Positions 1,602 through 11,397 of a DNA stretch of 11,397 nucleotides are shown here, in pieces; the stretch's first letter is position 1, and each line of letters opens with the position of its first letter. Source of the stretch: a virus; the IMG/VR virus record IMGVR_UViG_3300035701_000002. One strand, written 5' to 3'. A model generated the notes under the pieces. That model was not told the origin of the DNA and ran no database searches. It saw only the letters and a list, made by a program, of their open reading frames with translations. The position numbers were made by a program, and so were the translations under genes.

Positions 1602-2336
1602 ATGAAAAAGGGTCCGAAGACGGGGCCCGGACTCCCCGCCGAGGCCGCCGAGGCCGTCGAGAGGTGCGTCGCGAGGATGGCGTCCAAGAAGGACGCTCCC
1701 TACTTCCGGCACTTTCTGACAGAGCTTGTGGCCAACAACGCCCTTCCGGCCGAGATCCTCGAACATGTGCCCGTCCCGGCGTCGGAGGTGGGTAAGACGA
1801 GGTTCGACCAGGTCTACGACGCCGCGATGGCCCTCGTTTTCCCCGGGTACAGGAGAGAGACCCTCGAGAGGCTCCTTGGGCCGCTCGAGGGTCGAGGGGG
1901 GAAGGTGTGGCGGGTTCTTCTCCCCGAGCGCTTCCGTATCGCCCACGTCCTGATCAGGGCCCGAAGCTTTCAGGAGGCCTTCTCCCTCGGATGCGACTAC
2001 GCCTGCCGGGCGTCCCTCCGGGCGTTCGGGAAGGTCCCTGTGGATCTGACGATAAGGGTCGTGTTCATGAGCGAGAGGGCCATACGCAGAATGCTGGACA
2101 TGCGCTGGGCCAACAAGCACAGAAAGCGACAGCAGCTCAAGCTCGTGGGGCGCGAGTTCACGGACAGGCAGGTGAACGGGGCCAGGCTCGTTGCGCTCGG
2201 GCATCCGAAGGACCCGAAGCACTCCGTGGTCAAGTACACGGAGAAGAAGGACCTGGACAAGGTCCGGAAGTCCCGCGGGATGACGCGCACCTCGTCGGTC
2301 GAGCACGAGTCGTACAGGGTCCCGAAGGAGCCGTAG
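1602..2336 (+). CDS. Hypothetical protein, 244 aa; first gene of the PurA-like operon
   Basis: The ORF has very high GC3. It stops with TAG 49 nt before the next gene, whose start carries a strong GGAGGAG Shine-Dalgarno motif, so co-transcription is likely. I recognise no domain. An internal alternative start (MASKK) is possible. Confidence 0.6.
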   Translation: MKKGPKTGPGLPAEAAEAVERCVARMASKKDAPYFRHFLTELVANNALPAEILEHVPVPASEVGKTRFDQVYDAAMALVFPGYRRETLERLLGPLEGRGGKVWRVLLPERFRIAHVLIRARSFQEAFSLGCDYACRASLRAFGKVPVDLTIRVVFMSERAIRRMLDMRWANKHRKRQQLKLVGREFTDRQVNGARLVALGHPKDPKHSVVKYTEKKDLDKVRKSRGMTRTSSVEHESYRVPKEP

Positions 2337-2385: not shown

Positions 2386-3564
2386 ATGATCGAAGGTCGG
2401 ATGAACTTCATACTCGACGCTTTCTGGGGCTCGAGCGGCAAGGGGAAGACGTCGACGTGGCTCGCGGACCACCACAACGTGACGAACGTCTCGAGCTCGA
2501 ACTATCCGAACGCGGGCCATACGGCGCAGTTCGAGGACGGGACGAAGTTCGTGGCCAAGGCGATTCCGACGGCGGCCGTCCTGCGCAAGACTCGCGGCCT
2601 CGGGATGAGGTGCTTCATCTCCCCGGGATCCGGCTTCTCGCCGAAGCAGCTCCTGAAGGAGTGGGAGGAATGCGGCAGGCCGGACATGTTCGTCCACGAC
2701 CGTGCCAGCCTCGTGACCGAGGAGCACGCGGCCAGGGAGCGCGAGGGGTCCGAGTCGACCAAGCACATCGCGTCGACGATGCAGGGGTCCGGAACCGCCA
2801 TCGCGGACAAGGTCATGAGGAAGGCGGACGTCCAGCTCGCCGGCCACAACAGCGCATGGCTCGACGTCATCGCGGCGATGAGGCCGGAATCGTCCGACGA
2901 GATCAGGCGGAGGATTCAGGTCGTCCCGGCCATGGAGTTCAGGAACTTCGTCCACGGCGCGATCCGGGAGGGGAAGACCTGGCTTCACGAGGGATCCCAG
3001 GGCTACGCCCTCTCCATCGACCACGGGTCGCATTATCCGCACTGCACGAGCAGGAACTGCACGATCCAGGCGGCGATGGACCACATGGCGATCCCTCCCT
3101 CCATGGTCGGAGACGTATACCTCAACCTCAGGACTCACCCGATCCGGGTCGGGAACGTCGTGGAGGACGGCAGGCAGACTGGCTTCTCCGGAGGTTTTTA
3201 TCCGGACTGCCGGGAGATGACCTGGGAGCAGGTCGCGGCGGAGTCGGGAATGCCTCCGGCCGAGGCCGCGGAGCTTGCGGAGCGCGAGCGGACGACCGTG
3301 ACCAAGAGGATCAGGCGCGTCTGCACGTTCTCGTTCGAGGGCCTCCGAGACGCGGTCCGCGTGAACGGGGCGACGAAGCTCGTGCTGAACTTCATCCAGT
3401 ACGTGTGCTGGGAGGACAAGGGCCTCAAGGGCGGACGAGAGGCTTTCGAGAGCCTGTCAAGAAAGAGCCGCGAGTTCATCGACAAGGTCGAACGTGAGGC
3501 GAACCTTCCGGTCGTCCTCATCGGGACCGGACCGAACCACAACGAGATGATCGTCAGGGGGTGA
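2386..3564 (+). CDS. Adenylosuccinate synthetase family protein (PurA/PurZ-like), 392 aa, with a non-canonical P-loop and non-canonical GTP-specificity motif
   Basis: Family motifs seen in the translation: the P-loop GSSGKGK (canonical PurA has GDEGKGK); an exact NAGHT (catalytic His) at nt 2509-2523; EGSQGYALSIDHGSHYPHCTSRN (PurA has [22 protein letters not shown]) at nt 2989-3057; TKLV where PurA has TKLD (nt 3373-3384); and a C-terminal LIGTGPNHNEMI (PurA has ISTGPDRTETMI). A GGAGGAG Shine-Dalgarno motif lies 5 nt upstream. The TGA stop overlaps the GTG start of the next gene. Confidence 0.85.
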   Translation: MIEGRMNFILDAFWGSSGKGKTSTWLADHHNVTNVSSSNYPNAGHTAQFEDGTKFVAKAIPTAAVLRKTRGLGMRCFISPGSGFSPKQLLKEWEECGRPDMFVHDRASLVTEEHAAREREGSESTKHIASTMQGSGTAIADKVMRKADVQLAGHNSAWLDVIAAMRPESSDEIRRRIQVVPAMEFRNFVHGAIREGKTWLHEGSQGYALSIDHGSHYPHCTSRNCTIQAAMDHMAIPPSMVGDVYLNLRTHPIRVGNVVEDGRQTGFSGGFYPDCREMTWEQVAAESGMPPAEAAELAERERTTVTKRIRRVCTFSFEGLRDAVRVNGATKLVLNFIQYVCWEDKGLKGGREAFESLSRKSREFIDKVEREANLPVVLIGTGPNHNEMIVRG

Positions 3565-4040
3565 CCGTGGGCGGGGAGAAGAGCAAGCTCGTCCGTTTCT
3601 ACGAAGGTTCCGGGACGGACCATGCCGGGAGGAGCCTCAGGCAGATCTTGGCCTGGTCCGACGGCAGGCTGGAGTCAGTCCATGACTACATCCAGTGGCT
3701 GTTCCCGAACAGAAAGCCGAGCGACTTCAACCCGCACGCCCCGATCGTGACGCAGGACGACTCTGACGAGTTCAGGAGAAGGCCAGAGCTCCAGGGAGCC
3801 CTGTCAATGTCCGCGGACCGCATGGAGGCGTTCTACGACCTCGGGAGCACGAAGCCGTGGTGGGTAACCCCGTCCAACCACAACTATCTGAGGATAACCA
3901 GGGTCCTTCTCTCGCTGAAGGACCTGGGCCTCGAAGCGAGAGCCCTGTCCCTGTTTGAAAAGCTCTCGGACGTGTACACGGTGAACGTGGACGTGATTCC
4001 GTCGAAGACTGTGGCCCTCTGGATAAGTGCGATAGGATGA
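3561..4040 (+). CDS. OGFr N-terminal conserved-domain (opioid growth factor receptor-like) family protein, 159 aa
   Basis: The GTG start overlaps the PurA-like stop (GTGA). The motifs HDYIQWLFP(N)...NPHAP and HNYLRITRVLLSLKDLGLE match the human OGFR conserved region as I recall it (HSYIQWLFPLREPGVNWHAKP; NNLRITRILKSLGELGLE). GC3 is high. Confidence 0.7.
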   Translation: MTVGGEKSKLVRFYEGSGTDHAGRSLRQILAWSDGRLESVHDYIQWLFPNRKPSDFNPHAPIVTQDDSDEFRRRPELQGALSMSADRMEAFYDLGSTKPWWVTPSNHNYLRITRVLLSLKDLGLEARALSLFEKLSDVYTVNVDVIPSKTVALWISAIG

Positions 4041-4159
4041 AGAACCTCGACAAAGAGCCGGGTTTCTGGCTGACCGTCATCATGCTCGTCCCGCTCATCA
4101 TCGCCGTGGAGATCTTGCTCTTGTTCGAGAAGCGAGCTGCGTCCGGGAAGGCCCCATGA
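4037..4159 (+). CDS. Small single-pass membrane peptide, 40 aa (MKNLDKEPGFWLTVIMLVPLIIAVEILLLFEKRAASGKAP)
   Basis: It is not in the ORF track because it is too short. Its ATG overlaps the OGFr-like stop (ATGA) and its TGA overlaps the next ATG (ATGA). It has a hydrophobic core helix and coding-like GC3. It is one link in a chain of coupled genes. Confidence 0.5.
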   Translation: MKNLDKEPGFWLTVIMLVPLIIAVEILLLFEKRAASGKAP

Positions 4160-4416
4160 GCAAGGCCGACGGCGTCCCCGAGGTCTTCGGAGAGGGGGAC
4201 GTGACCATAGTGATGAGCTCGACGGGGACGCGTCTCTACCTAGGGACGATCCTCGTCGGATGCCTGGAGAAGGTTGAGGCTTCCGCGGGCCCTGACGGGA
4301 TGAGCCCGTCGCTCACAGTCACGTTCCCGAAGAGCCACGAGACGGCCATGTCGACGACGATAGAGGAGAACGCGAGGGTCCTCAGGGCCGCGGGTTGGGT
4401 CAGGGTCCTTCAGTAG
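4156..4416 (+). CDS. Hypothetical protein, 86 aa; last gene of the coupled operon
   Basis: It is in the ORF track. The ATG overlaps the upstream stop. It ends with TAG and overlaps the 3' end of the convergent 4400..4975 gene by 17 nt. Confidence 0.5.
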   Translation: MSKADGVPEVFGEGDVTIVMSSTGTRLYLGTILVGCLEKVEASAGPDGMSPSLTVTFPKSHETAMSTTIEENARVLRAAGWVRVLQ

Positions 4417-4975
4417 GCGGGTCGGATCTCCTCTTCCTCTTCAGGTGAATTCCGACCTGGTCCGGGTTCTCGACCATGTACTTGTGGCAAGAGTGGAAGT
4501 AGTCCGGGATGGGGTGGGCGGCGTCCTTCATCATCAGGGACTCGAACACGGTCCGTCCTCCGGAGGCGCCCCACATCCAGTCCTCGTCGATGGGGACGTC
4601 CGGGGACCTCTGGCTCCAGACGTTCCCGTACGGGAACATGAGGAGTATGAACTCTTTTTTGGAGAAGTGCGGGTTCGGCATGGGCACGAACTCCTCCTTC
4701 CTCTTGATCGACAGGAACACGCCGGGCGGCAGGACGACGCCCTCGGGGGTCGAGGTTACCCATCTCTTGATGGACATCCACTTAACCTCCGGCGTCTTGA
4801 CCCCGGTCTTCTTCCGGCAGGAAAGCGAGCAGTTGTAGAGCGCCGACGGAGAAAGGCCGCAAGTCCACGGACTGAAGTCGTCCGGGACTCCCCGGAAGAC
4901 ATGCATGGACCTGAAGAACGGTATCTTGATGGCCTCAACGGCCTGCTGTACTTTCTCAAGAACTTCTTTATCCAT
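4400..4975 (-). CDS. Hypothetical protein, 192 aa (Lys-rich; unknown function), divergent from the ThyX-like gene
   Basis: The ORF track extends to 5062, but the first ATG with an upstream GGAG is at 4973-4975 (MDKEVLEKVQQAVEAIK...). GC3 is high over the body. I recognise no domain. Confidence 0.6.
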   Translation of the reverse strand: MDKEVLEKVQQAVEAIKIPFFRSMHVFRGVPDDFSPWTCGLSPSALYNCSLSCRKKTGVKTPEVKWMSIKRWVTSTPEGVVLPPGVFLSIKRKEEFVPMPNPHFSKKEFILLMFPYGNVWSQRSPDVPIDEDWMWGASGGRTVFESLMMKDAAHPIPDYFHSCHKYMVENPDQVGIHLKRKRRSDPPTEGP

Positions 4976-4990
4976 CGGGAGAGCTCCGAA

Positions 4991-6325
4991 ATGGCAGATA
5001 CAAAGGTGGACGTGTTTTGCTTGACCGACGGCCTCGGTCAGGTTCTTCACCCTGCAGTGCAAGCTACTGTACTGGCGAAGTACTCGAGATCCCCGATGTC
5101 GGCGAGGGACATCGTCTCAGGCCTGACCCTCGAGGAGGCGGACAGGTTCCAGGACAAGTGGGTCGTCGGATACGGCCACTCGAGCGTGGCGGAGCTCGCC
5201 ACGATACCCCTCTGCTTCGAGGGGGTGTCTATCGTCGCGTCCAAATTCCTGGAGTCATGGCAGAGGCCAGGGTACTCGGAGAAAAGCACGAGGTACCAGG
5301 CTTTCTCCCGGGACTCGTTCGTGAGCCCTCCGGGAGCCCCGAGCACCATGAAGCACTTCGCCTCCAGGCTGTACGACGCCTACGAGAGCCTCCTTCCGAA
5401 GGTCTCCGCGATCGTCGCAGCGAAAACGGGCAAGGACAAGGACGACAGGACCGTGAAGGCCCGGGCGTTCGACAACGTCCGGTATCTTCTTCCGGCCGGT
5501 ACGGGGACGAACCTCGCATGGGTGGGGAACGCAAGGGACGTTCGGTACATGATCTCCTCCGCACTCGGATCGACGAACCCCGAGTTCAGGGCCATCGGGG
5601 AGGCCGCGTCGAAGGCCGTGTCCGAGCTATGTCCGGTGTTCGTGCGGGACGCCGAGCCGGACTCGTTCGAGCCTACGATTCGCTCTCTGGGGAAGACAAG
5701 TCCGAAGTTCGACTACAGGAATCCAAGCTGGTACGTGGACGTACACAGGCCGCACCTGATGCCATCCCCCGATCTCGTACAGAAGTCGTTCGAGTCCTCC
5801 TTGGCCGACATGTACGGGATGAGCTGGACGGCGTTCTGCAAGCACATGGACTCCCGGGGAAAAAGGGCGGTCCCCAGAATCTTCAGGACAGCACGGATCG
5901 CGTTCGACGTCATGATGGACTACGGGGCGTACCGCGATCTCCAGAGGCACCGCCGGTGCGAGCAGTACCCGGAGCCGCTGGCGGCCGGATACGGATATCT
6001 GGTCCCGGACGACATACTCGGGACAGACCTCGAGGCCGAGTATCGGGCTGCCATGGACTCAGTCCTGGCGTACGAGGACGAGACCGTCGTCCACGACGAA
6101 GACCTCATGCAGTACATGATACCCCTCGGATACCTCCACAGGTCGGTCTTCGAGATGGACCTGGCCGAGCTGTACTACCTGTCCGAACTGAGGACTCAGC
6201 CTCAGGGACACATATCGTACAGAAGGGTCGCGTACGGGATGTACTCCGAGGCGTCCGCACTGATCCCCGGCCTGATGCGATGGTGTCGCGCTATTCGTCC
6301 GGACGAGATAGGCGAGCACCGGTGA
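4991..6325 (+). CDS. Tandem (two-domain) ThyX-like flavin-dependent thymidylate synthase family protein, about 444 aa, with complementary degeneration of the catalytic motifs in the two halves
   Basis: The start ATG at 4991 is preceded by GGGAGAG. The N-terminus (KVDVF...LAKYSRS) resembles a ThyX N-terminus. The N-terminal half has GHSSVAEL (ThyX HxSVxEH-like, nt 5174-5197), SEKSTRY (the ThyX SxRY motif, nt 5285-5296) and NARDVRY (ThyX NxRxLxHF-like, nt 5528-5548), but it has SWQ where RHR is expected. The C-terminal half has ...YRDLQRHRR (the RHR motif, nt 5945-5956) and LRTQPQGHISYRRVA (ThyX C-terminal LR...H..EIR..A-like, nt 6188-6229), but it lacks SxRY. The ORF-track entry 4445..6325 is the same frame with a spurious 5' extension antisense to the 192-aa gene. 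Confidence 0.75.
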   Translation: MADTKVDVFCLTDGLGQVLHPAVQATVLAKYSRSPMSARDIVSGLTLEEADRFQDKWVVGYGHSSVAELATIPLCFEGVSIVASKFLESWQRPGYSEKSTRYQAFSRDSFVSPPGAPSTMKHFASRLYDAYESLLPKVSAIVAAKTGKDKDDRTVKARAFDNVRYLLPAGTGTNLAWVGNARDVRYMISSALGSTNPEFRAIGEAASKAVSELCPVFVRDAEPDSFEPTIRSLGKTSPKFDYRNPSWYVDVHRPHLMPSPDLVQKSFESSLADMYGMSWTAFCKHMDSRGKRAVPRIFRTARIAFDVMMDYGAYRDLQRHRRCEQYPEPLAAGYGYLVPDDILGTDLEAEYRAAMDSVLAYEDETVVHDEDLMQYMIPLGYLHRSVFEMDLAELYYLSELRTQPQGHISYRRVAYGMYSEASALIPGLMRWCRAIRPDEIGEHR

Positions 6326-6528
6326 AGGAGGACCTGGCGACGAGGACGGCCCTTCTTCCGCCGGAGAAGAGGGACGAGATCCGCAACTCCCTCAGGACCG
6401 AGATGTCCTCGATGAGGGTGAAAAACCTTCGGAACACCATCTCGAAGCTCCTTCCGAAGCTCAGCAAGATGGGCCTCAGCGGGGGCGAGATCCTGTCGGA
6501 GGCCGAGAAGTTCCTGTCTCGGTCATGA
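6322..6528 (+). CDS. Small hypothetical protein, about 68 aa (VKEDLATRTALLPPEKRDEIRNSL...), translationally coupled to the ThyX-like gene
   Basis: The GTG at 6322-6324 overlaps the ThyX-like TGA (GTGA). The product is a Lys/Leu-rich helical-looking sequence with coding-like GC3. It corresponds to the last 69 codons of the otherwise spurious track ORF 5017..6528. Confidence 0.4.
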   Translation: MKEDLATRTALLPPEKRDEIRNSLRTEMSSMRVKNLRNTISKLLPKLSKMGLSGGEILSEAEKFLSRS

Positions 6529-6870
6529 CGGGGACTTCGGGTACATAACGTCAATCTGCCACGGGACGGTTTCGCGCTCATGGAGGACGGGCGGTGCGAA
6601 GATCTTCACGATCTCGTATATGACGTTCCCTGAGTCCTCGTCCAGGGTCGGCACCTCCGCGAGCGTGAGGCACGGGCCGGACGCCGACGCCGACCGGGAA
6701 TCTTCGGACAAGATTCCGGGGTCCACGGGGGTCCTCCCATATCCGCCGACGAGAGAGCATAGAGCTTTCTTATTGACGGAGTAAAGGAGAGGACTAGATC
6801 CCTTTCTAGGACAAGAAGAAGCAACCCGGCATTTCGTACACTCCATCTGAAGGTATCTGACTTGACCCAT
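6523..6870 (-). CDS. Hypothetical protein, up to 115 aa; the true start may be further downstream
   Basis: It is the only candidate ORF in 6529-6920. The C-terminal two-thirds has high GC3. The first roughly 45 codons (which carry a CxxC...C motif) have atypically low GC3 and lie in a lower-GC island, so an internal GTG or TTG start is plausible. Confidence 0.35.
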   Translation of the reverse strand: MGQVRYLQMECTKCRVASSCPRKGSSPLLYSVNKKALCSLVGGYGRTPVDPGILSEDSRSASASGPCLTLAEVPTLDEDSGNVIYEIVKIFAPPVLHERETVPWQIDVMYPKSPS

Positions 6871-6920
6871 GATGGACGCTACCGAGATGGACCGGGCGTT
6901 GACGTATAGACGGAAGGAAC

Positions 6921-7823
6921 ATGTCCCTTAAGAACGCGGCCGAAACTGAGACCATGAGAGATACGGGCAAAGGGCTTCCGGAGAAGGGGTTCTTCGAGCT
7001 CGACCTCATGTCAAGCAAGATCATGTGGATGAACGAGTTCTCCCTGACGAAGGTAGGGATGAACCTCGAGCAAGCACAGTCCATGACCGTCTACGACGTG
7101 GTCCCGGAGGAGTTCCACGACTCTCTGAGCAGCTTCATCTCCGACGCTTCGAGCGGGAGGACGTCCAAGTTCTACATCTGGCCGTTCCGATCCTCGGACA
7201 TGAGCGTCACGTGGTGGTACTTCGCCCGGTTCAAGTCGGACCACCCGACCCACTGGTTCAAGGCCGAGTTCCTGAACAAGACCGGGAAGTCGGGCCCAGA
7301 GTATTCGTCCATGCTGGCGGCCATGAACACGGCGAACAGCTACAACGACCTGTACAACAAGCTCTCGGACTTCCAGCTGTTCACCAAGTCGAACATCGAC
7401 TCCATCAACGAGAAGGTCCAGGAGCTGAAGGATGAGCAGGCCGTCTTGAAGGAGCAGATCGTGGGGGCGACGTCGGCGGCTAACAGGGCGGCGAACGCGG
7501 CCATCGACGTCTCGTCCGCCATGAGGAACTTCAAGACGGACGTCCAGGAGCAGTTCTCGAAACAGACGGTGGAGATCCTGCGCCTAATCAGCACGGACGC
7601 CGTCCACGACCAGCGGCTCGTGGCGTTCGAGAAGCACATACAGAAGACGACGGACAACGCGGTCCGCGTCATAACGGTCCAGGCGGACAAGGCAGGACAG
7701 ATCATCACGACGCAGGCGGACAAGGCCGGAAAGAGCCTGTCGAGGAAGGTCACGATCCCGATAGGCGCAATCGCGGCGGTAATGACGATCTTGCAGTGGA
7801 TCATCACGCACTGGCCCAAGTGA
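6921..7823 (+). CDS. PAS-like N-terminal domain, central coiled-coil and C-terminal transmembrane anchor protein, 300 aa
   Basis: A GGAAGGA Shine-Dalgarno-like motif lies 4 nt upstream of the ATG. The PAS-like segment is GFFELDL...YIWPFRSSDMSVTWWYFARF. The middle of the protein is rich in heptad-like Q/E/K/A residues. An imperfect tandem peptide repeat TVQADKAGQII/TTQADKAGKSL is present (the 14-nt direct repeat caggcggacaaggc occurs twice, within 7680-7730). The C-terminal hydrophobic helix is IPIGAIAAVMTILQWIITHW. Confidence 0.6.
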   Translation: MSLKNAAETETMRDTGKGLPEKGFFELDLMSSKIMWMNEFSLTKVGMNLEQAQSMTVYDVVPEEFHDSLSSFISDASSGRTSKFYIWPFRSSDMSVTWWYFARFKSDHPTHWFKAEFLNKTGKSGPEYSSMLAAMNTANSYNDLYNKLSDFQLFTKSNIDSINEKVQELKDEQAVLKEQIVGATSAANRAANAAIDVSSAMRNFKTDVQEQFSKQTVEILRLISTDAVHDQRLVAFEKHIQKTTDNAVRVITVQADKAGQIITTQADKAGKSLSRKVTIPIGAIAAVMTILQWIITHWPK

Positions 7824-7848
7824 CGCTCGAGGTCAGTAAAGTTCGCGA

Positions 7849-8322
7849 ATGGGCTCAAGCGACCCGCCTGACGGCGAAATCAGCATAGAGATACCGCTCC
7901 CTCCGGGGACGGCCTCCTCGGGGCCGCCGGGAGGGAAGGATCACGGGCGCCTGAAGGCCTGGACGAACTTCATCGCCACCGCCGCAGCCCTGCTGGTCGC
8001 AGCAGCGGCGATACTGAAGCCACAGGACCACTCGACGGCCAGAGCCTCGTACGACGAGCTCAAGAAGGCTGTGGACGAGAACTCGCAGAACGACCGAAGG
8101 AACCACGAGGACCTCGTGGCCCTCAGGAACTACATGGACGGCTACCTGAAGGGGGCGGGGGCTGCGACGTCGCTCCCGTCGTCCATGCCGGTACCGTCGA
8201 CGTCCGGCTCAGCCAGGGCTATCCCCCCAGCTCCGGTCGCCACCATGCCTCCCCTCCCGGTACTCCATCCGGAGCCGAAGCCCCACAACCTTCCAGACTT
8301 CGACGCGGTGATGAAGAAATGA
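7849..8322 (+). CDS. Single-pass membrane protein with a Pro-rich C-terminal tail, 157 aa
   Basis: It is in the ORF track. The TM segment is WTNFIATAAALLVAAAAIL. The C-terminal region is Pro/Ser/Ala-rich. Its TGA overlaps the ATG of the downstream peptidase (ATGA). Confidence 0.55.
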   Translation: MGSSDPPDGEISIEIPLPPGTASSGPPGGKDHGRLKAWTNFIATAAALLVAAAAILKPQDHSTARASYDELKKAVDENSQNDRRNHEDLVALRNYMDGYLKGAGAATSLPSSMPVPSTSGSARAIPPAPVATMPPLPVLHPEPKPHNLPDFDAVMKK

Positions 8323-9260
8323 ACCTTCAAGGACTGACCGTCAACGGATACAGGGAAGCTCCGCAGGCCCTCTCGGACACCCACCCGAAGTTCGGGCTCG
8401 TCAGGGACGCGATGAGGGGGAGCGTCGACACGTACTACGAGGGCCAGTCCTCAGACCTGCGCGGCCTTTCCCCGAAGCGGCACAACCAGCTTCGCTCGAG
8501 CTCGTGCGTGGCCCAGTCGGTCGTGAGGGCGGCGGAGGTCAAGAGGATCCACAAGCTCTTCCTCACAGCGCAGGGGAGGGGGCTGGACATAGCGGCCGCC
8601 CTAGCCGAGGCTCAGGCCGGGCACGTCGCGCTCTCGAGGCTCGCCCTGTACTACCTGGCGAGGGAGATCATGGACCCCCCGGAGACGAGCCTGGACGAGG
8701 GGACGTACGTCTCGATGGCGGCCGAAGCCCTGAAGTCCTTCGGGGTCTGCAGGGAGGAAAAAAGCGCCACGAACCCGGCGGACCGAGCGTTCTGGCCGTT
8801 CGACCTGGGGACAGTCCCGGCTTCCGGCCGGGAGAGGATCTTCGAGTCCCCGACGTGGGCTGTCATGAGGGAAGCCTACCTCCACAAGATTCACGCCTGG
8901 TACAGGCTCGAGACCACCGGCGACGACCGCGTGAGGGACGTAATCCTCGCGCTTGCGGCGGGCAACCCCGTCGTCTACGGGACTCAGGTCGACGGGCAGT
9001 GGCAGACGTACGACGGTTCCGTCCCGCTCGGGACTCTGAAGAGCCGCGTCCTCGGAGGGCACGCGACCGTGCTCGAGGGATGGGAGCCGGGGAGGCAGCT
9101 CTTCCTCGGAGAGAACTCGTGGGGCGAGGACTGGGGCCTGACGGGGCCCGACGGGACCGGAGGGTTCTATGAGATCACTCCGGAGAAGATCGCCAGCAGC
9201 GAGTCGAACGACTTCGTGGTGATCGAGGGCGGCTGGGAACCGTGGAGGAAGGCGGCATGA
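8319..9260 (+). CDS. Papain-like (C1 family) cysteine peptidase, 313 aa, with no signal peptide
   Basis: The motif Q-x5-C in HNQLRSSSCVAQS matches the papain Gln19/Cys25 spacing. GGHATVLEGWE is like the papain His motif. GENSWGEDWGLTG...GFYEI matches the C1 hallmark NSWGxxWGxxGY. The first roughly 60 residues could be a prodomain. Confidence 0.75.
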   Translation: MNLQGLTVNGYREAPQALSDTHPKFGLVRDAMRGSVDTYYEGQSSDLRGLSPKRHNQLRSSSCVAQSVVRAAEVKRIHKLFLTAQGRGLDIAAALAEAQAGHVALSRLALYYLAREIMDPPETSLDEGTYVSMAAEALKSFGVCREEKSATNPADRAFWPFDLGTVPASGRERIFESPTWAVMREAYLHKIHAWYRLETTGDDRVRDVILALAAGNPVVYGTQVDGQWQTYDGSVPLGTLKSRVLGGHATVLEGWEPGRQLFLGENSWGEDWGLTGPDGTGGFYEITPEKIASSESNDFVVIEGGWEPWRKAA

Positions 9261-9571
9261 GGTCTCTGAGAAGTTTTTTTGCCGTCCTGTTGGTCGGCGT
9301 CGCGATCTCATCCGGATGTGGGCCGAAGAAGCCGGTCGTGCACGTCCCGACGGACACGGCGGACTGCCCGTCGGCATGCAAGCACCTCCGCGGGGAGGAC
9401 GGCTCAGGACTGAGCTGCGACGAGGGCAAGCCCCTCCCGGACGGGACCACATGCGAGAAGTTCTGTGCGGACACCCAGAACTCCGGACACGCTCTGGTTC
9501 CGAGCTGCGTGATGAAGGTCACACAGTGCTCGGACATGGACCACGTGGAAGACTTCTGCCCGAAGAAGTGA
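9257..9571 (+). CDS. Small Cys-rich secreted lipoprotein, about 104 aa (9 Cys; mature part about 85 aa with 8 Cys)
   Basis: The ATG at 9257 overlaps the peptidase TGA (ATGA). A GGAGGAAGG Shine-Dalgarno motif lies 4-12 nt upstream. The signal peptide MRSLRSFFAVLLVGVAISSG-C carries a lipobox-like SSGC. The Cys count suggests four disulfides. The track ORF 9242..9571 is the same frame with two extra N-terminal codons. Confidence 0.6.
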   Translation: MRSLRSFFAVLLVGVAISSGCGPKKPVVHVPTDTADCPSACKHLRGEDGSGLSCDEGKPLPDGTTCEKFCADTQNSGHALVPSCVMKVTQCSDMDHVEDFCPKK

Positions 9572-9581
9572 GACGGGCCTG

Positions 9582-9806
9582 ATGTTGGAGGACGTCCGGT
9601 GCGGCCTCCACAGCGGGATACCTGCGTGCTGCATAGCGTGGTACCTGGGCCCATGGAGGCTCGTGGGGTACGGAAGAGCTCCGCGCATCAGGCGGACGTA
9701 CTTCGAGCTGCTCGACGGCTTCGGGCACATCGCATGCCCCCTGTGCTTTCTGAAGGGCAGGGTTGTCGAAGTCAGAGAGTGCGATTGCCATTCCGCCGGG
9801 CTGTAA
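9582..9806 (+). CDS. Small Cys-rich (zinc-ribbon-like) protein, 74 aa
   Basis: It is in the ORF track. The Cys pattern is C-x8-CC ... CxxC ... CxC (8 Cys and 3 His in 74 aa). It ends with TAA 8 nt before the next gene. Confidence 0.4.
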   Translation: MLEDVRCGLHSGIPACCIAWYLGPWRLVGYGRAPRIRRTYFELLDGFGHIACPLCFLKGRVVEVRECDCHSAGL

Positions 9807-9814
9807 GCTCGAGG

Positions 9815-10429
9815 ATGGAACAGACAGACCTGATAGCGCTCATCGACCTGGACGGGACCGTGGCGGACTACGACTCCGCACTGATTGAGTCCATGAGGGC
9901 CATCCAGTCGCCGGACGAAACCCCGTACAAGAACCGGTACGAGGACGGCGGCGCAAGGGAGGAGATACCTCACGTTGAGGCCCGAAGGAGGCTCATCCAG
10001 AGGCAGCCTGGCTTTTGGAGGAACCTGAAGCCGCTGCCGGCAGGGTTCGAGGTGGTGGACGAGCTCAGGTCTCTCGGATTCTCGCTGCACGTCCTGACGA
10101 AGGGACCCGTCTCCACGCCCGTGGCGTGGAGCGAGAAGGTCGAATGGTGCCAGCGCCATCTCGAGGACGCCGTAGTGACGGTCACCGGCGACAAGAGCCT
10201 GGTGTACGGGCGTATACTCGTGGACGACTTCCCGCCGTACTTCACGAAGTGGCTGACCGTGAGGCCGCGCGGGCTCGTGGTGTGCATTGCCCACCCGTGG
10301 AACGCGGGGTATGCGAAGGGCGAGAAGCAGGAGCACCCGAACGTGCTCAGGTACGACGGGACGAACCGGGATGAGCTCAGGGCCAGGGTGCAGCGCGCGT
10401 ACGAGAGGACCGCGGGCGGGGGATTGTAG
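9815..10429 (+). CDS. HAD-superfamily 5'(3')-deoxyribonucleotidase-like hydrolase, about 204 aa
   Basis: The N-terminal LIDLDGTVADYD is HAD motif I (DxDGT), as in NT5C-type nucleotidases (DMDGVLADF). The second acidic motif is near the C-terminus (GRILVDDFP). The true start is the internal ATG at 9815 within the track ORF 9599..10429. GC3 is high. Confidence 0.7.
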   Translation: MEQTDLIALIDLDGTVADYDSALIESMRAIQSPDETPYKNRYEDGGAREEIPHVEARRRLIQRQPGFWRNLKPLPAGFEVVDELRSLGFSLHVLTKGPVSTPVAWSEKVEWCQRHLEDAVVTVTGDKSLVYGRILVDDFPPYFTKWLTVRPRGLVVCIAHPWNAGYAKGEKQEHPNVLRYDGTNRDELRARVQRAYERTAGGGL

Positions 10430-10472: not shown

Positions 10473-10628
10473 ATGCAGAACGAGTCCATCACGGTAGTCG
10501 TTCCGGCTCCTGCTTTCGTCACGTCGGACGTAACGGCCAAGCCGCACCAGACAATCCTGTGCGACTCGTCCTCCGGGACCCCGTTCAACATAACGTTGCC
10601 GAACGCGGCAGTGTGGCAGGGGGCGTAG
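10473..10628 (+). CDS. 51-codon ORF (MQNESITVVVPAPAFVTSDVTAKPHQTILCDSSSGTPFNITLPNAAVWQGA) ending at an in-frame TAG, in the same frame as the downstream fiber-like gene
   Basis: It is not in the ORF track because it is short. GC3 is very high. The Thr/Val/Ser/Ala/Pro-rich composition matches the downstream repeat protein. It could be the N-terminus of that protein interrupted by TAG, or a separate small gene. Confidence 0.4.
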   Translation: MQNESITVVVPAPAFVTSDVTAKPHQTILCDSSSGTPFNITLPNAAVWQGA

Positions 10629-10643
10629 GTCGTAGTCAAGGTA

Positions 10644-11397
10644 GTGGCTAGCGGTGCGAACCTGACAGTCCTGGCCCAAGGTGGGACGGTCGAGGGAGCG
10701 GCGAGCTTTATCATTCGTATCCAGAGTCAGCTGTGCTCCTACACGTTCCAGAGCGACGGAGTGTCGAACTGGGACCTGACGCAGAAAATAGCCCCTGTCA
10801 AGAGCGGGACGCAGAACTACTCGGTCATTGTCGGCGGAGAGAGTGGAAACACCGCCACAAACGTCAGCTCGGTGGTCGTCGGAGGCTTCAACAACACATC
10901 CAGTGGGTCGAGCTCCGGGACTCTGTGCTCACAGGGGTCGACGGCCAGCGGGACGAGGAGCGTGACTCTTGGGGGGAACGCATGCACGGCGTCAGGGACG
11001 GATGGAGTGTGCATCGGGGGTTCCGGGACGCTCGCGTCAGCCTCAAACACGCTCGCCACCGGCGGAGGGCATGCGACAGCTCAGGACGCCCTCGCCATAG
11101 GACGGGGCACCGTCGCATCCGCACTCTTCTCACTAGCCATCGGAAGGGACGCTCAGGCCACCGTCCAAAGTCAGACGGCCATAGGGGTCGGGACAGACCA
11201 ATACGGAGATCCGAACGCCCGTAACTGGCTTGTCCAGTCGGGAGAGTCCGTCGGAGGGGCGTCGGGGGACATGGACTTCGACTTCGCCGTAAACGGAAAG
11301 ACATACGCCCTGTGCATAACCGTATTGGGGAGCCGGCAGGACGCGCAAGGGTGCAACGTGCGAACGTTCACCGGCTTGATCCACGGTTCCGGCGGAT
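10644..11397 (+). CDS. Gly/Ser/Thr/Ala-rich repeat protein (phage tail fiber / adhesin-head-like), 3'-partial, running off the right edge
   Basis: The frame is open from 10629 to the window end with no stop. The first start-like codon is GTG at 10644. The product has repeats such as SVIVGGESGNTATNVSSVVVGGFNNTSSG..., VTLGGNACTASGTDGVCIGGSGTLASASNTLATGGGHATAQDALAIGRGTVAS and LAIGRDAQATVQSQTAIGVGT. These are reminiscent of fiber or trimeric-adhesin head repeats. The edge-truncated ORF is not in the ORF track. Confidence 0.55.
   Translation, partial: MASGANLTVLAQGGTVEGAASFIIRIQSQLCSYTFQSDGVSNWDLTQKIAPVKSGTQNYSVIVGGESGNTATNVSSVVVGGFNNTSSGSSSGTLCSQGSTASGTRSVTLGGNACTASGTDGVCIGGSGTLASASNTLATGGGHATAQDALAIGRGTVASALFSLAIGRDAQATVQSQTAIGVGTDQYGDPNARNWLVQSGESVGGASGDMDFDFAVNGKTYALCITVLGSRQDAQGCNVRTFTGLIHGSGG

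Follow-up and report, generated by a model that had tools for sequence, protein, structure and literature searches.

A predicted sister clade of PurZ, linked to a tandem ThyX-like protein, in uncultivated jumbo phages

Does a PurA-like ligase encoded by an uncultivated virus serve ordinary purine metabolism, or does it mark a phage whose DNA carries 2-aminoadenine (Z) in place of adenine? The question is raised by a stretch of 11,397 nucleotides from IMG/VR virus record IMGVR_UViG_3300035701_000002, which was analyzed at its whole length and is called the window below. An earlier note on this DNA had pointed to three genes lying within 8 kb, encoding a PurA/PurZ-like ligase, a ThyX-like protein and an NT5C-type HAD hydrolase, and had proposed that they form part of an undescribed pathway of DNA-precursor modification. 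All three are real genes, each with family matches (coordinates in Table 1). The reading that we consider probable is PurZ-driven synthesis of the Z deoxynucleoside triphosphate (dZTP), combined with a supply of thymidine monophosphate (dTMP) by the phage, i.e., the known Z-base pathway in an undescribed group of jumbo phages.

The ligase matches Pfam Adenylsucc_synt (2e-35) and PHROG 1211, annotated as '2-aminooxy adenylosuccinate synthetase' (1e-60). Among PDB proteins (phmmer) the best match is PurZ of phage phiVC8 (2.6e-32), followed by PurA of Pyrococcus horikoshii (1.4e-31) and PurZ of phage S-2L (5.9e-30), while E. coli PurA reaches only ~1e-13; the purA model TIGR00184 gives 140 bits (cut-off 395.6). 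An alignment of the window protein included four PurZ, three PurZ0 and two bacterial PurA proteins as well as 120 homologues. Its P-loop reads GSSGKGK, in which S16 occupies the position of E. coli PurA D13, and serine stands there in all 120 homologues. This aspartate is present in 99% of PurA, and serine in 100% of the phage sequences of the PurZ group (PMC12884076). T303, F336, Y339, Y272 and W280 correspond to T262, F295, Y298, Y244 and W252 of phiVC8 PurZ and are invariant among the homologues, and P252 (phiVC8 P233) is kept in 119 of them. In the phiVC8 enzyme, F295 and Y298 form stacking contacts with the adenine of ATP, and T262 belongs to the 2-amino pocket. In the metaGPA study (bioRxiv 2025.10.22.683976), contigs with dZ are best told apart from unmodified ones by W252 and Y244. 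The residues K331 and D333, which specify GTP in PurA, are replaced by F336 and Q338 in the window protein, the catalytic residues that PurA and PurZ share (K, N, H, T, R, Q and R) are all retained, and both a PurZ-type insertion behind the V255 loop and a TTVTK motif are present.

The comparison covered 84 related loci, each with flanks of at most 10 kb on either side, in which the window genes were scored by tblastn; PurZ is at least 50% identical to that of the window in 57 of them (clade A) and 41–47% identical in the other 27 (clade B). In a neighbor-joining tree with 200 bootstraps, which is distance-based only, clade A, including the window protein, is supported by a bootstrap value of 100, as are the union of clades A and B and the grouping of this union with canonical PurZ to the exclusion of PurZ0. 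All Ser-type enzymes together split from PurA at a bootstrap value of 99. The residue signature and the tree bear out the earlier suspicion that the PurA-like gene is not a housekeeping purA and that it points to non-canonical, Z-containing DNA. Judged by these features, the predicted enzyme is PurZ-type rather than a housekeeping PurA, and it quite likely functions as a PurZ.

Comparison with characterized relatives places the enzyme more precisely. With the PurZ of phiVC8, SH-Ab 15497 and S-2L it shares the serine at Asp13, the equivalents of T262, F295, Y298, Y244, W252 and P233, the loop insertion, TTVTK and the catalytic set, whereas it is only 31–36% identical to them, has Trp in place of Phe12, and carries an extra insertion of ~17 residues (AAESGMPPAEAAELAER) as well as a PurA-like C-terminus. 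The genomic setting differs too: canonical PurZ belongs to a DatZ–MazZ–DpoZ cluster in phages of 40–70 kb, whereas the window PurZ lies in jumbo-phage genomes beside a tandem ThyX and open reading frames (ORFs) of unknown fold. PurZ0 of the Arthrobacter and Gordonia phages Wayne and Ghobes/Archimedes likewise has Ser at Asp13, the T262 equivalent and the same fold family, but identity is 27–29% and PurZ0 keeps the PurA-like (T/S)M.D where the window clade has NF.QY. PurZ0 genomes always encode DutZ, mostly fused to DmtZ (PMC12884076). The short archaeal PurA of P. horikoshii (PDB 5K7X/2D7U) resembles the window protein in length and in its C-terminal region, in keeping with its phmmer score, but has WGDEGKG with Asp13 and falls outside the Ser-type clade. 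As a side observation, the homologues P0362, P0363, P0365, P0372 and P0383 are 750–1197 amino acids (aa) long owing to inteins with LAGLIDADG homing endonucleases; PurZ-clade inteins occur at two sites, one close to the NAGHT motif and the other close to the CTSRNC motif, and one protein contains two of them.

In which genomes does this clade occur? Among 50,697 phage isolates no record is more than 37% identical to the ligase, and the clade is absent there. In a large protein collection, clustering at 90% identity gives more than 120 clusters for it, with identities of 64–99% and on contigs of up to 445 kb, and a library clustered at 50% identity contains 252 clusters matching the ligase at ≤1e-30. 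The sources are hundreds of uncultivated contigs from many metagenome projects. The gene set of the window (57–67% GC) was found unchanged on at least 14 metagenomic contigs, of which the longest one read has 108,811 bp (inspected at positions 12711–42237, ~30 kb), and single window proteins have identical copies on contigs of up to 203 kb. Two independent projects each yielded a contig (L017 and L018; 307,632 and 307,777 bp) that encodes the same PurZ protein, and this agreement suggests a complete jumbo-phage genome of ~308 kb. We found no literature in which PurZ or diaminopurine is connected with jumbo or huge phages, and a survey of huge phages mentions purine-biosynthesis genes in general terms only (PMC7162821). 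What is new is the PurZ sister clade, its setting in jumbo phages and the partners of unknown fold that are conserved with it.

The neighborhoods of the clade point to a phage. PurZ is surrounded by genes for a class II ribonucleotide reductase, clamp-loader subunits, NAD-dependent ligase, sigma-like proteins, topoisomerase II, a Dda-like helicase, primases and a deoxynucleoside monophosphate (dNMP) kinase, and PHROG matches identify structural and lysis-type neighbors, namely an endolysin-like PG_binding protein, tail-fiber proteins and a head-decoration protein. Most of the neighboring ORFs could not be assigned to any family, the inspected loci showed no genes for rRNA, tRNA or ribosomal proteins, and one relative (L014) is itself an IMG/VR viral contig. 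The window forms part of a region for replication and nucleotide metabolism in an uncultivated jumbo phage of at least 203 kb, with relatives of 300–445 kb. As an aside, the NAD-dependent DNA ligase of L014 is split between opposite strands into an adenylation half (4106–5221, plus strand; profile positions 6–380) and an OB/HhH/BRCT half (2596–3396, minus strand; positions 385–654).

Which of the neighbors travel with PurZ was assessed across the 57 clade-A loci. The ORF directly upstream of PurZ, g244, is found in 40 of them, c4 in 38, the ThyX-like gene in 34, g103 in 33 and a sigma-like neighbor, g459, in 32; g417 (24), the dNMP kinase (22), the clamp loader (21) and g86 (21) follow. The OGFr_N-like and papain-like genes of the window occur in six loci each, a second NT5C gene in five and the window HAD in three. 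The 27 clade-B loci lack all clade-A partners. Given the counts for ThyX and for the HAD, the linkage of PurZ to ThyX has been maintained through evolution and the HAD stands outside it; of the clustering that had been noted for the three genes, the PurZ–ThyX pair is non-random and the HAD drops out. The conserved core block consists of g103, g244, PurZ, g86, c4 and the tandem ThyX. Within it, c4 and g244 are confined to this clade, and their AlphaFold2 models have mean confidence (pLDDT) values of 88 and 77, respectively; both are candidates for a pool-editing step that is otherwise missing from the predicted pathway. For g459 and g417 there is no match among the 50,697 phage records. The dNMP kinase, located at 19359–20372 in L011 and at 9204–9989 in L017, may phosphorylate the Z monophosphate (dZMP).

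The ThyX-like protein matches Pfam Thy1 in two stretches (1.9e-29; 103.3 bits, gathering threshold 24.8) and PHROG 36506 (2.9e-23). The true gene has the extent given in Table 1; a 626-aa ORF starting at 4445 is an over-extension, since its 5' part overlaps the conserved minus-strand ORF c4. Aligned to ThyX of Mycobacterium tuberculosis, the N-terminal half has SWQ in place of RHR and keeps YSEKSTRY, and the C-terminal half keeps RDLQRHRR (RHRRCEQ) and the ELRT.P.GHISYR tail without the Ser/Arg loop. The signature RHRxxxxxxxS(x)R is therefore complete in neither half (TIGR02170, 41.5 bits; cut-off 87.9), and the half-motif residues are conserved across 33 homologues. The same pattern is found over 93% of the length (1e-48) in gp50 of the cultured Tunturiibacter phage Tunturi_5 (308.7 kb), which is annotated as thymidylate synthase and adjoins a dCMP deaminase and a dUTPase, and full-length tandem relatives also occur in Microcystis phages Ma-LMM01/MaMV and Vibrio phages Yong/BONAISHI. 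These cultured large-phage proteins of PHROG 36506 and the window protein are alike in their two domains, with RHR in the C half only, S..S.RY in the N half only and the ELRT.P.GHISYR tail; they differ in that identity is 23–29% and that the window copy sits beside PurZ and c4. From this arrangement we infer a thymidylate synthase that forms a pseudo-dimer and has half as many active sites as usual. Because the Tunturi_5 member adjoins dCMP deaminase and dUTPase genes, the tandem protein looks like an ordinary dTMP supplier and not like a modifying enzyme, a role that had been suggested for it. We know of no member of the tandem family that has been assayed, and our search for literature on tandem ThyX found nothing useful.

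The HAD is a typical member of its family. It matches Pfam NT5C (7.7e-12; 45.9 bits, gathering threshold 24.8), its best PDB matches are human cdN (cytosolic 5'(3')-deoxyribonucleotidase, 8.3e-10) and mdN, and alignment to human cdN shows intact motifs: DLDGTVADY (DxDGT), PGFW..L.P.P, T and VDD. The earlier statement that all three enzymes deviate from canonical motifs is accordingly correct for the ligase (Ser for Asp13) and for ThyX (split signature), and wrong for the HAD. In phage PBS1, whose DNA contains dU, the mdN-like phosphatase Dtm clears dTMP (PMC12697855). Human cdN and mdN, Dtm and the window protein share HAD motifs I–IV and the PGF(F/W) cap motif; the window HAD is part of a genome that also has a ThyX, which makes a dTMP-clearing role unlikely, and it is not conserved with PurZ. 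Its sporadic occurrence and canonical motifs, with proximity in this locus as the one tie to PurZ, argue against the proposal that it is a specific clearing enzyme; drainage of dAMP is a possible, speculative role. A second, divergent NT5C-type paralogue (DVDGVLADF, VDD) lies on the minus strand at 12127–12693 of L011, 1.7 kb downstream of the window, and adjoins an endolysin-like PG_binding protein.

Taken together, these observations would fit the following scheme. The PurZ-type enzyme, as its residue signature and phylogeny suggest, would use ATP or dATP to join dGMP and aspartate into N6-succino-2-amino-dAMP, which host PurB would convert to dZMP as in the known pathway. The phage dNMP kinase encoded ~10 kb downstream and host NDP kinase would then yield dZTP for incorporation opposite T, whose precursor, dTMP, would be provided by the tandem ThyX, and the nearby class II ribonucleotide reductase would feed deoxynucleotides into the system. 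The two NT5C phosphatases may drain an unwanted dNMP such as dAMP; in this speculative role they would be accessory and not core. In chemical terms this is most likely the PurZ pathway reported in 2021, and not an undescribed one as had been supposed.

Known Z-pathway accessories were sought in 1.35 Mb of related loci by phmmer, using as queries DatZ and DpoZ of phiVC8, DatZ, DUF5664-DUF550 and DpoZ of SH-Ab 15497, and gp50, DmtZ-DutZ and the polymerase of Wayne. The sole match is a DUF5664-like ORF, resembling dATP/dGTP diphosphohydrolases of known Z pathways, in two loci (L068 and L073, ~285–806), where PurZ is 54% identical to that of the window. A Pfam census of 143 sporadic clade-A ORFs identified one dGTP_diPhyd_N domain (7.9e-23) and one MazG/HisE-like PRA-PH domain (3.9e-11); MazZ itself was not seen within 10 kb of clade-A PurZ. 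In 12 of the 27 clade-B loci a nucleoside 2-deoxyribosyltransferase (NDT)-like gene lies ~1 kb upstream of PurZ (Pfam, 2.1e-6), for example at 8703–9110 in L078, and the NDT family has been tied to dZ biosynthesis in literature of 2025–2026. The predicted NDT-like, diphosphohydrolase and MazG-like domains of these relatives are Z-pathway context. The replisome genes seen in the inspected loci, i.e., clamp loader, topoisomerase II and Dda-like helicase, are not of the PolA type.

Two further genes lie ~6.5–9 kb downstream of the window, encoding in L011 a QueC-like protein (16730–17587) and a DUF7277/DUF7275 protein (18517–19410). The QueC-like protein aligns to the C-terminal part of the QueC profile only, and no DpdA-like transglycosylase was seen; 7-deazaguanine modification of the DNA is a faint possibility that we do not claim.

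Several observations weigh against a Z-base pathway run by a PurZ-type enzyme in a jumbo phage. W14 of the ligase, at the position of PurZ Phe12, is PurA-like and is Trp in 118 of the 120 homologues, and S36, A147 and A284 also deviate at PurZ-discriminating positions. The NCBIfam PurZ model NF038379, a narrow 'exception' model, scores 192.1 bits (cut-off 300) and the archaeal-type PurA model NF003295 scores 185 bits (cut-off 368); because the PurZ cut-off is missed and the archaeal model is nearly equal, we call the group a sister clade of PurZ and not a plain member of it. Within 10 kb of PurZ in the 57 clade-A loci, phmmer detected no DatZ, DUF550, DutZ, DmtZ or DpoZ, the models of c4 and g244 match no known fold and give no functional clue, and neither terminase nor major capsid genes were seen in the regions read (20–30 kb of genomes of 200–445 kb). 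The Trp preceding the P-loop Gly and the near-tie of the two models, together with the Pfam match, the label adenylosuccinate synthase in the sources and the report of purine-biosynthesis genes in huge phages (PMC7162821), would fit an ordinary auxiliary metabolic gene of the PurA type, which uses IMP, aspartate and GTP to make more AMP during infection. Such an enzyme would hardly have exchanged Asp13 for Ser in every homologue and K331/D333 for F/Q while carrying the full set of PurZ residues and the loop insertion, nor would it group with PurZ at a bootstrap value of 100 and fall so far below the TIGR00184 cut-off, and we regard this explanation as very improbable. Even less credit is due to a cellular chromosome or plasmid with housekeeping purA, thyX and surE-like genes. 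Clade members do occur on contigs of two metagenome-assembled genomes (Lentisphaeria and Methylobacter) among 185,579 species-representative cellular genomes, and contigs reach 445 kb; however, these two contigs are isolated (76 kb and 6 kb), the gene is in no isolate genome, most neighbors have no family and none of those seen encodes rRNA, tRNA or ribosomal proteins. There are genes for tail fibers, head decoration, an endolysin-like protein and a dNMP kinase, and since such phage-type neighbors go together with a relative in IMG/VR, an ordinary chromosome is ruled out and the phage-like character that the earlier note had assigned to this element is supported.

The remaining alternatives accept a phage and a PurZ-like enzyme and differ in what it is for. 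A joint new pathway, with a modified pyrimidine as the product of the ThyX-like protein and the HAD as a specific remover of the canonical dNMP, would account for the proximity of the three genes and the atypical ThyX signature, has a precedent in the dTMP-clearing phosphatase of PBS1 (PMC12697855), and could draw on the second NT5C and QueC-like genes nearby. But the HAD is near PurZ in so few loci and has such canonical motifs, and cultured jumbo phages have tandem ThyX without a PurZ, in a setting of classical dUMP-to-dTMP synthesis, that we consider it improbable; nothing indicates a modified pyrimidine. A working PurZ without wholesale replacement of A, with dZTP serving partial substitution, manipulation of nucleotide pools or a non-genome purpose, deserves more weight and is a possible, if minority, explanation. 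It draws on the dearth of known accessories in clade A, where the DUF5664-like ORF of two loci and one PRA-PH domain are the exceptions, and on the replisome genes not being PolA-type. However, accessories may sit elsewhere in these large genomes, an ATP/dATP-using PurZ consumes dATP by itself, and some relatives do have dATP/dGTP diphosphohydrolase, MazG-like or NDT domains. Moreover, S-2L is fully substituted by means of a non-selective PrimPol and pool editing (PMC8065100). At the opposite end, it is conceivable, though doubtful, that a large group of jumbo phages of 200–445 kb, distributed worldwide, is fully Z-substituted by means of pool-editing enzymes that have no relation to DatZ, MazZ, DutZ and DmtZ, among which g244, c4, g86 and g103 clear dATP or channel dGMP, perhaps joined here by a second purine modification through the QueC-like protein. 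The known Z-base pathway with phage dTMP supply remains the reading that we prefer, and we lean slightly toward genomes of the clade being substantially Z-substituted.

Table 1 Genes and open reading frames of the window (positions in the 11,397-nucleotide stretch)
Feature	Position	Strand	Basis or occurrence
g103, 103 aa	903–1214	-	no Pfam family recorded; ≤10 kb from PurZ in 33/57 clade-A loci
g244, 244 aa, directly upstream of PurZ	1602–2336	+	conserved ORF
Predicted PurZ-type succino-amino-deoxyadenylate synthase, 392 aa	2386–3564	+	Pfam, PHROG, residue signature, tree
OGFr_N-like protein, 159 aa; start overlaps PurZ stop	3561–4040	+	Pfam OGFr_N 1.5e-13
g86, 86 aa	4156–4416	+	in 21/57 clade-A loci, always between PurZ and c4
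c4, 191 aa, between PurZ and ThyX	4400–4975	-	conserved ORF
Tandem (two-domain) ThyX-like protein, 444 aa	4991–6325	+	Pfam Thy1, PHROG 36506
Coiled-coil protein, 300 aa, hydrophobic C-terminal segment	6921–7823	+	weak coiled-coil Pfam matches; 15/57 loci
157-aa ORF	7849–8322	+	
Papain-like cysteine peptidase, 313 aa	8319–9260	+	Peptidase_C1 5.2e-5; PHROG 16701 3e-9; sporadic, 6/57 loci
Small ORF	9257–9571	+	
Small ORF	9582–9806	+	
NT5C-type HAD, 204 aa	9815–10429	+	Pfam NT5C; sporadic, 3/57 loci
Fiber-like repeat protein, runs off the window	10473–11397	+	YadA_head 4.6e-4 on intact 365-aa version in L012

The slot directly after PurZ is variable. In the window it is taken by the OGFr_N-like gene, which occupies it in only six loci; at least five relatives have a NADAR gene there (4.9e-47) and one relative a weakly PARP-like gene; examples in relatives are L016 11313–11888, L087 912–1421 and L048 12878–13450. 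This turnover suggests a hotspot for accessory or counter-defense genes. The OGFr_N-like protein was considered as an analogue of DatZ or MazZ and dropped, because the slot also takes NADAR or PARP-like genes; it has no PDB relative, no useful literature on it was found, and its role is probably an unrelated accessory one.

The remaining phage-like neighbors that had been named in the window fared unevenly: profile matches support the papain-like peptidase and the fiber-like protein (Table 1), and the 'secreted transglycosylase' at the left end is without HMM support. In the window, the fiber-like gene has an in-frame TAG at 10626–10628, right behind a G5 tract. Further assemblies of this phage show either G4, with a frameshift (L010 and L011, ~10770–10780), or G5 followed by TCG, which gives an intact ORF of 365 aa (10659–11756 in L012). 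These differences could be population heterogeneity, phase variation or homopolymer assembly noise. Scans for promoters, terminators and tRNAs gave nothing notable.

To our knowledge, 2-aminoadenine DNA has so far been documented in small siphoviruses and podoviruses of ~40–80 kb. If our reading is true, a PurZ sister clade present in hundreds of jumbo-phage contigs would extend Z chemistry to the largest phages, and genes of huge phages that are labeled 'adenylosuccinate synthase' or 'purine biosynthesis' may mark modified DNA. Such DNA would bear on sequencing, on restriction-based methods and on the interpretation of host defense. Since the clade lacks the usual neighbors of the Z cluster, it would also be a source of candidate new dATP-exclusion enzymes, of use for engineering Z-DNA in cells, and the tandem ThyX with its predicted complementary half-sites is a putative enzyme architecture.

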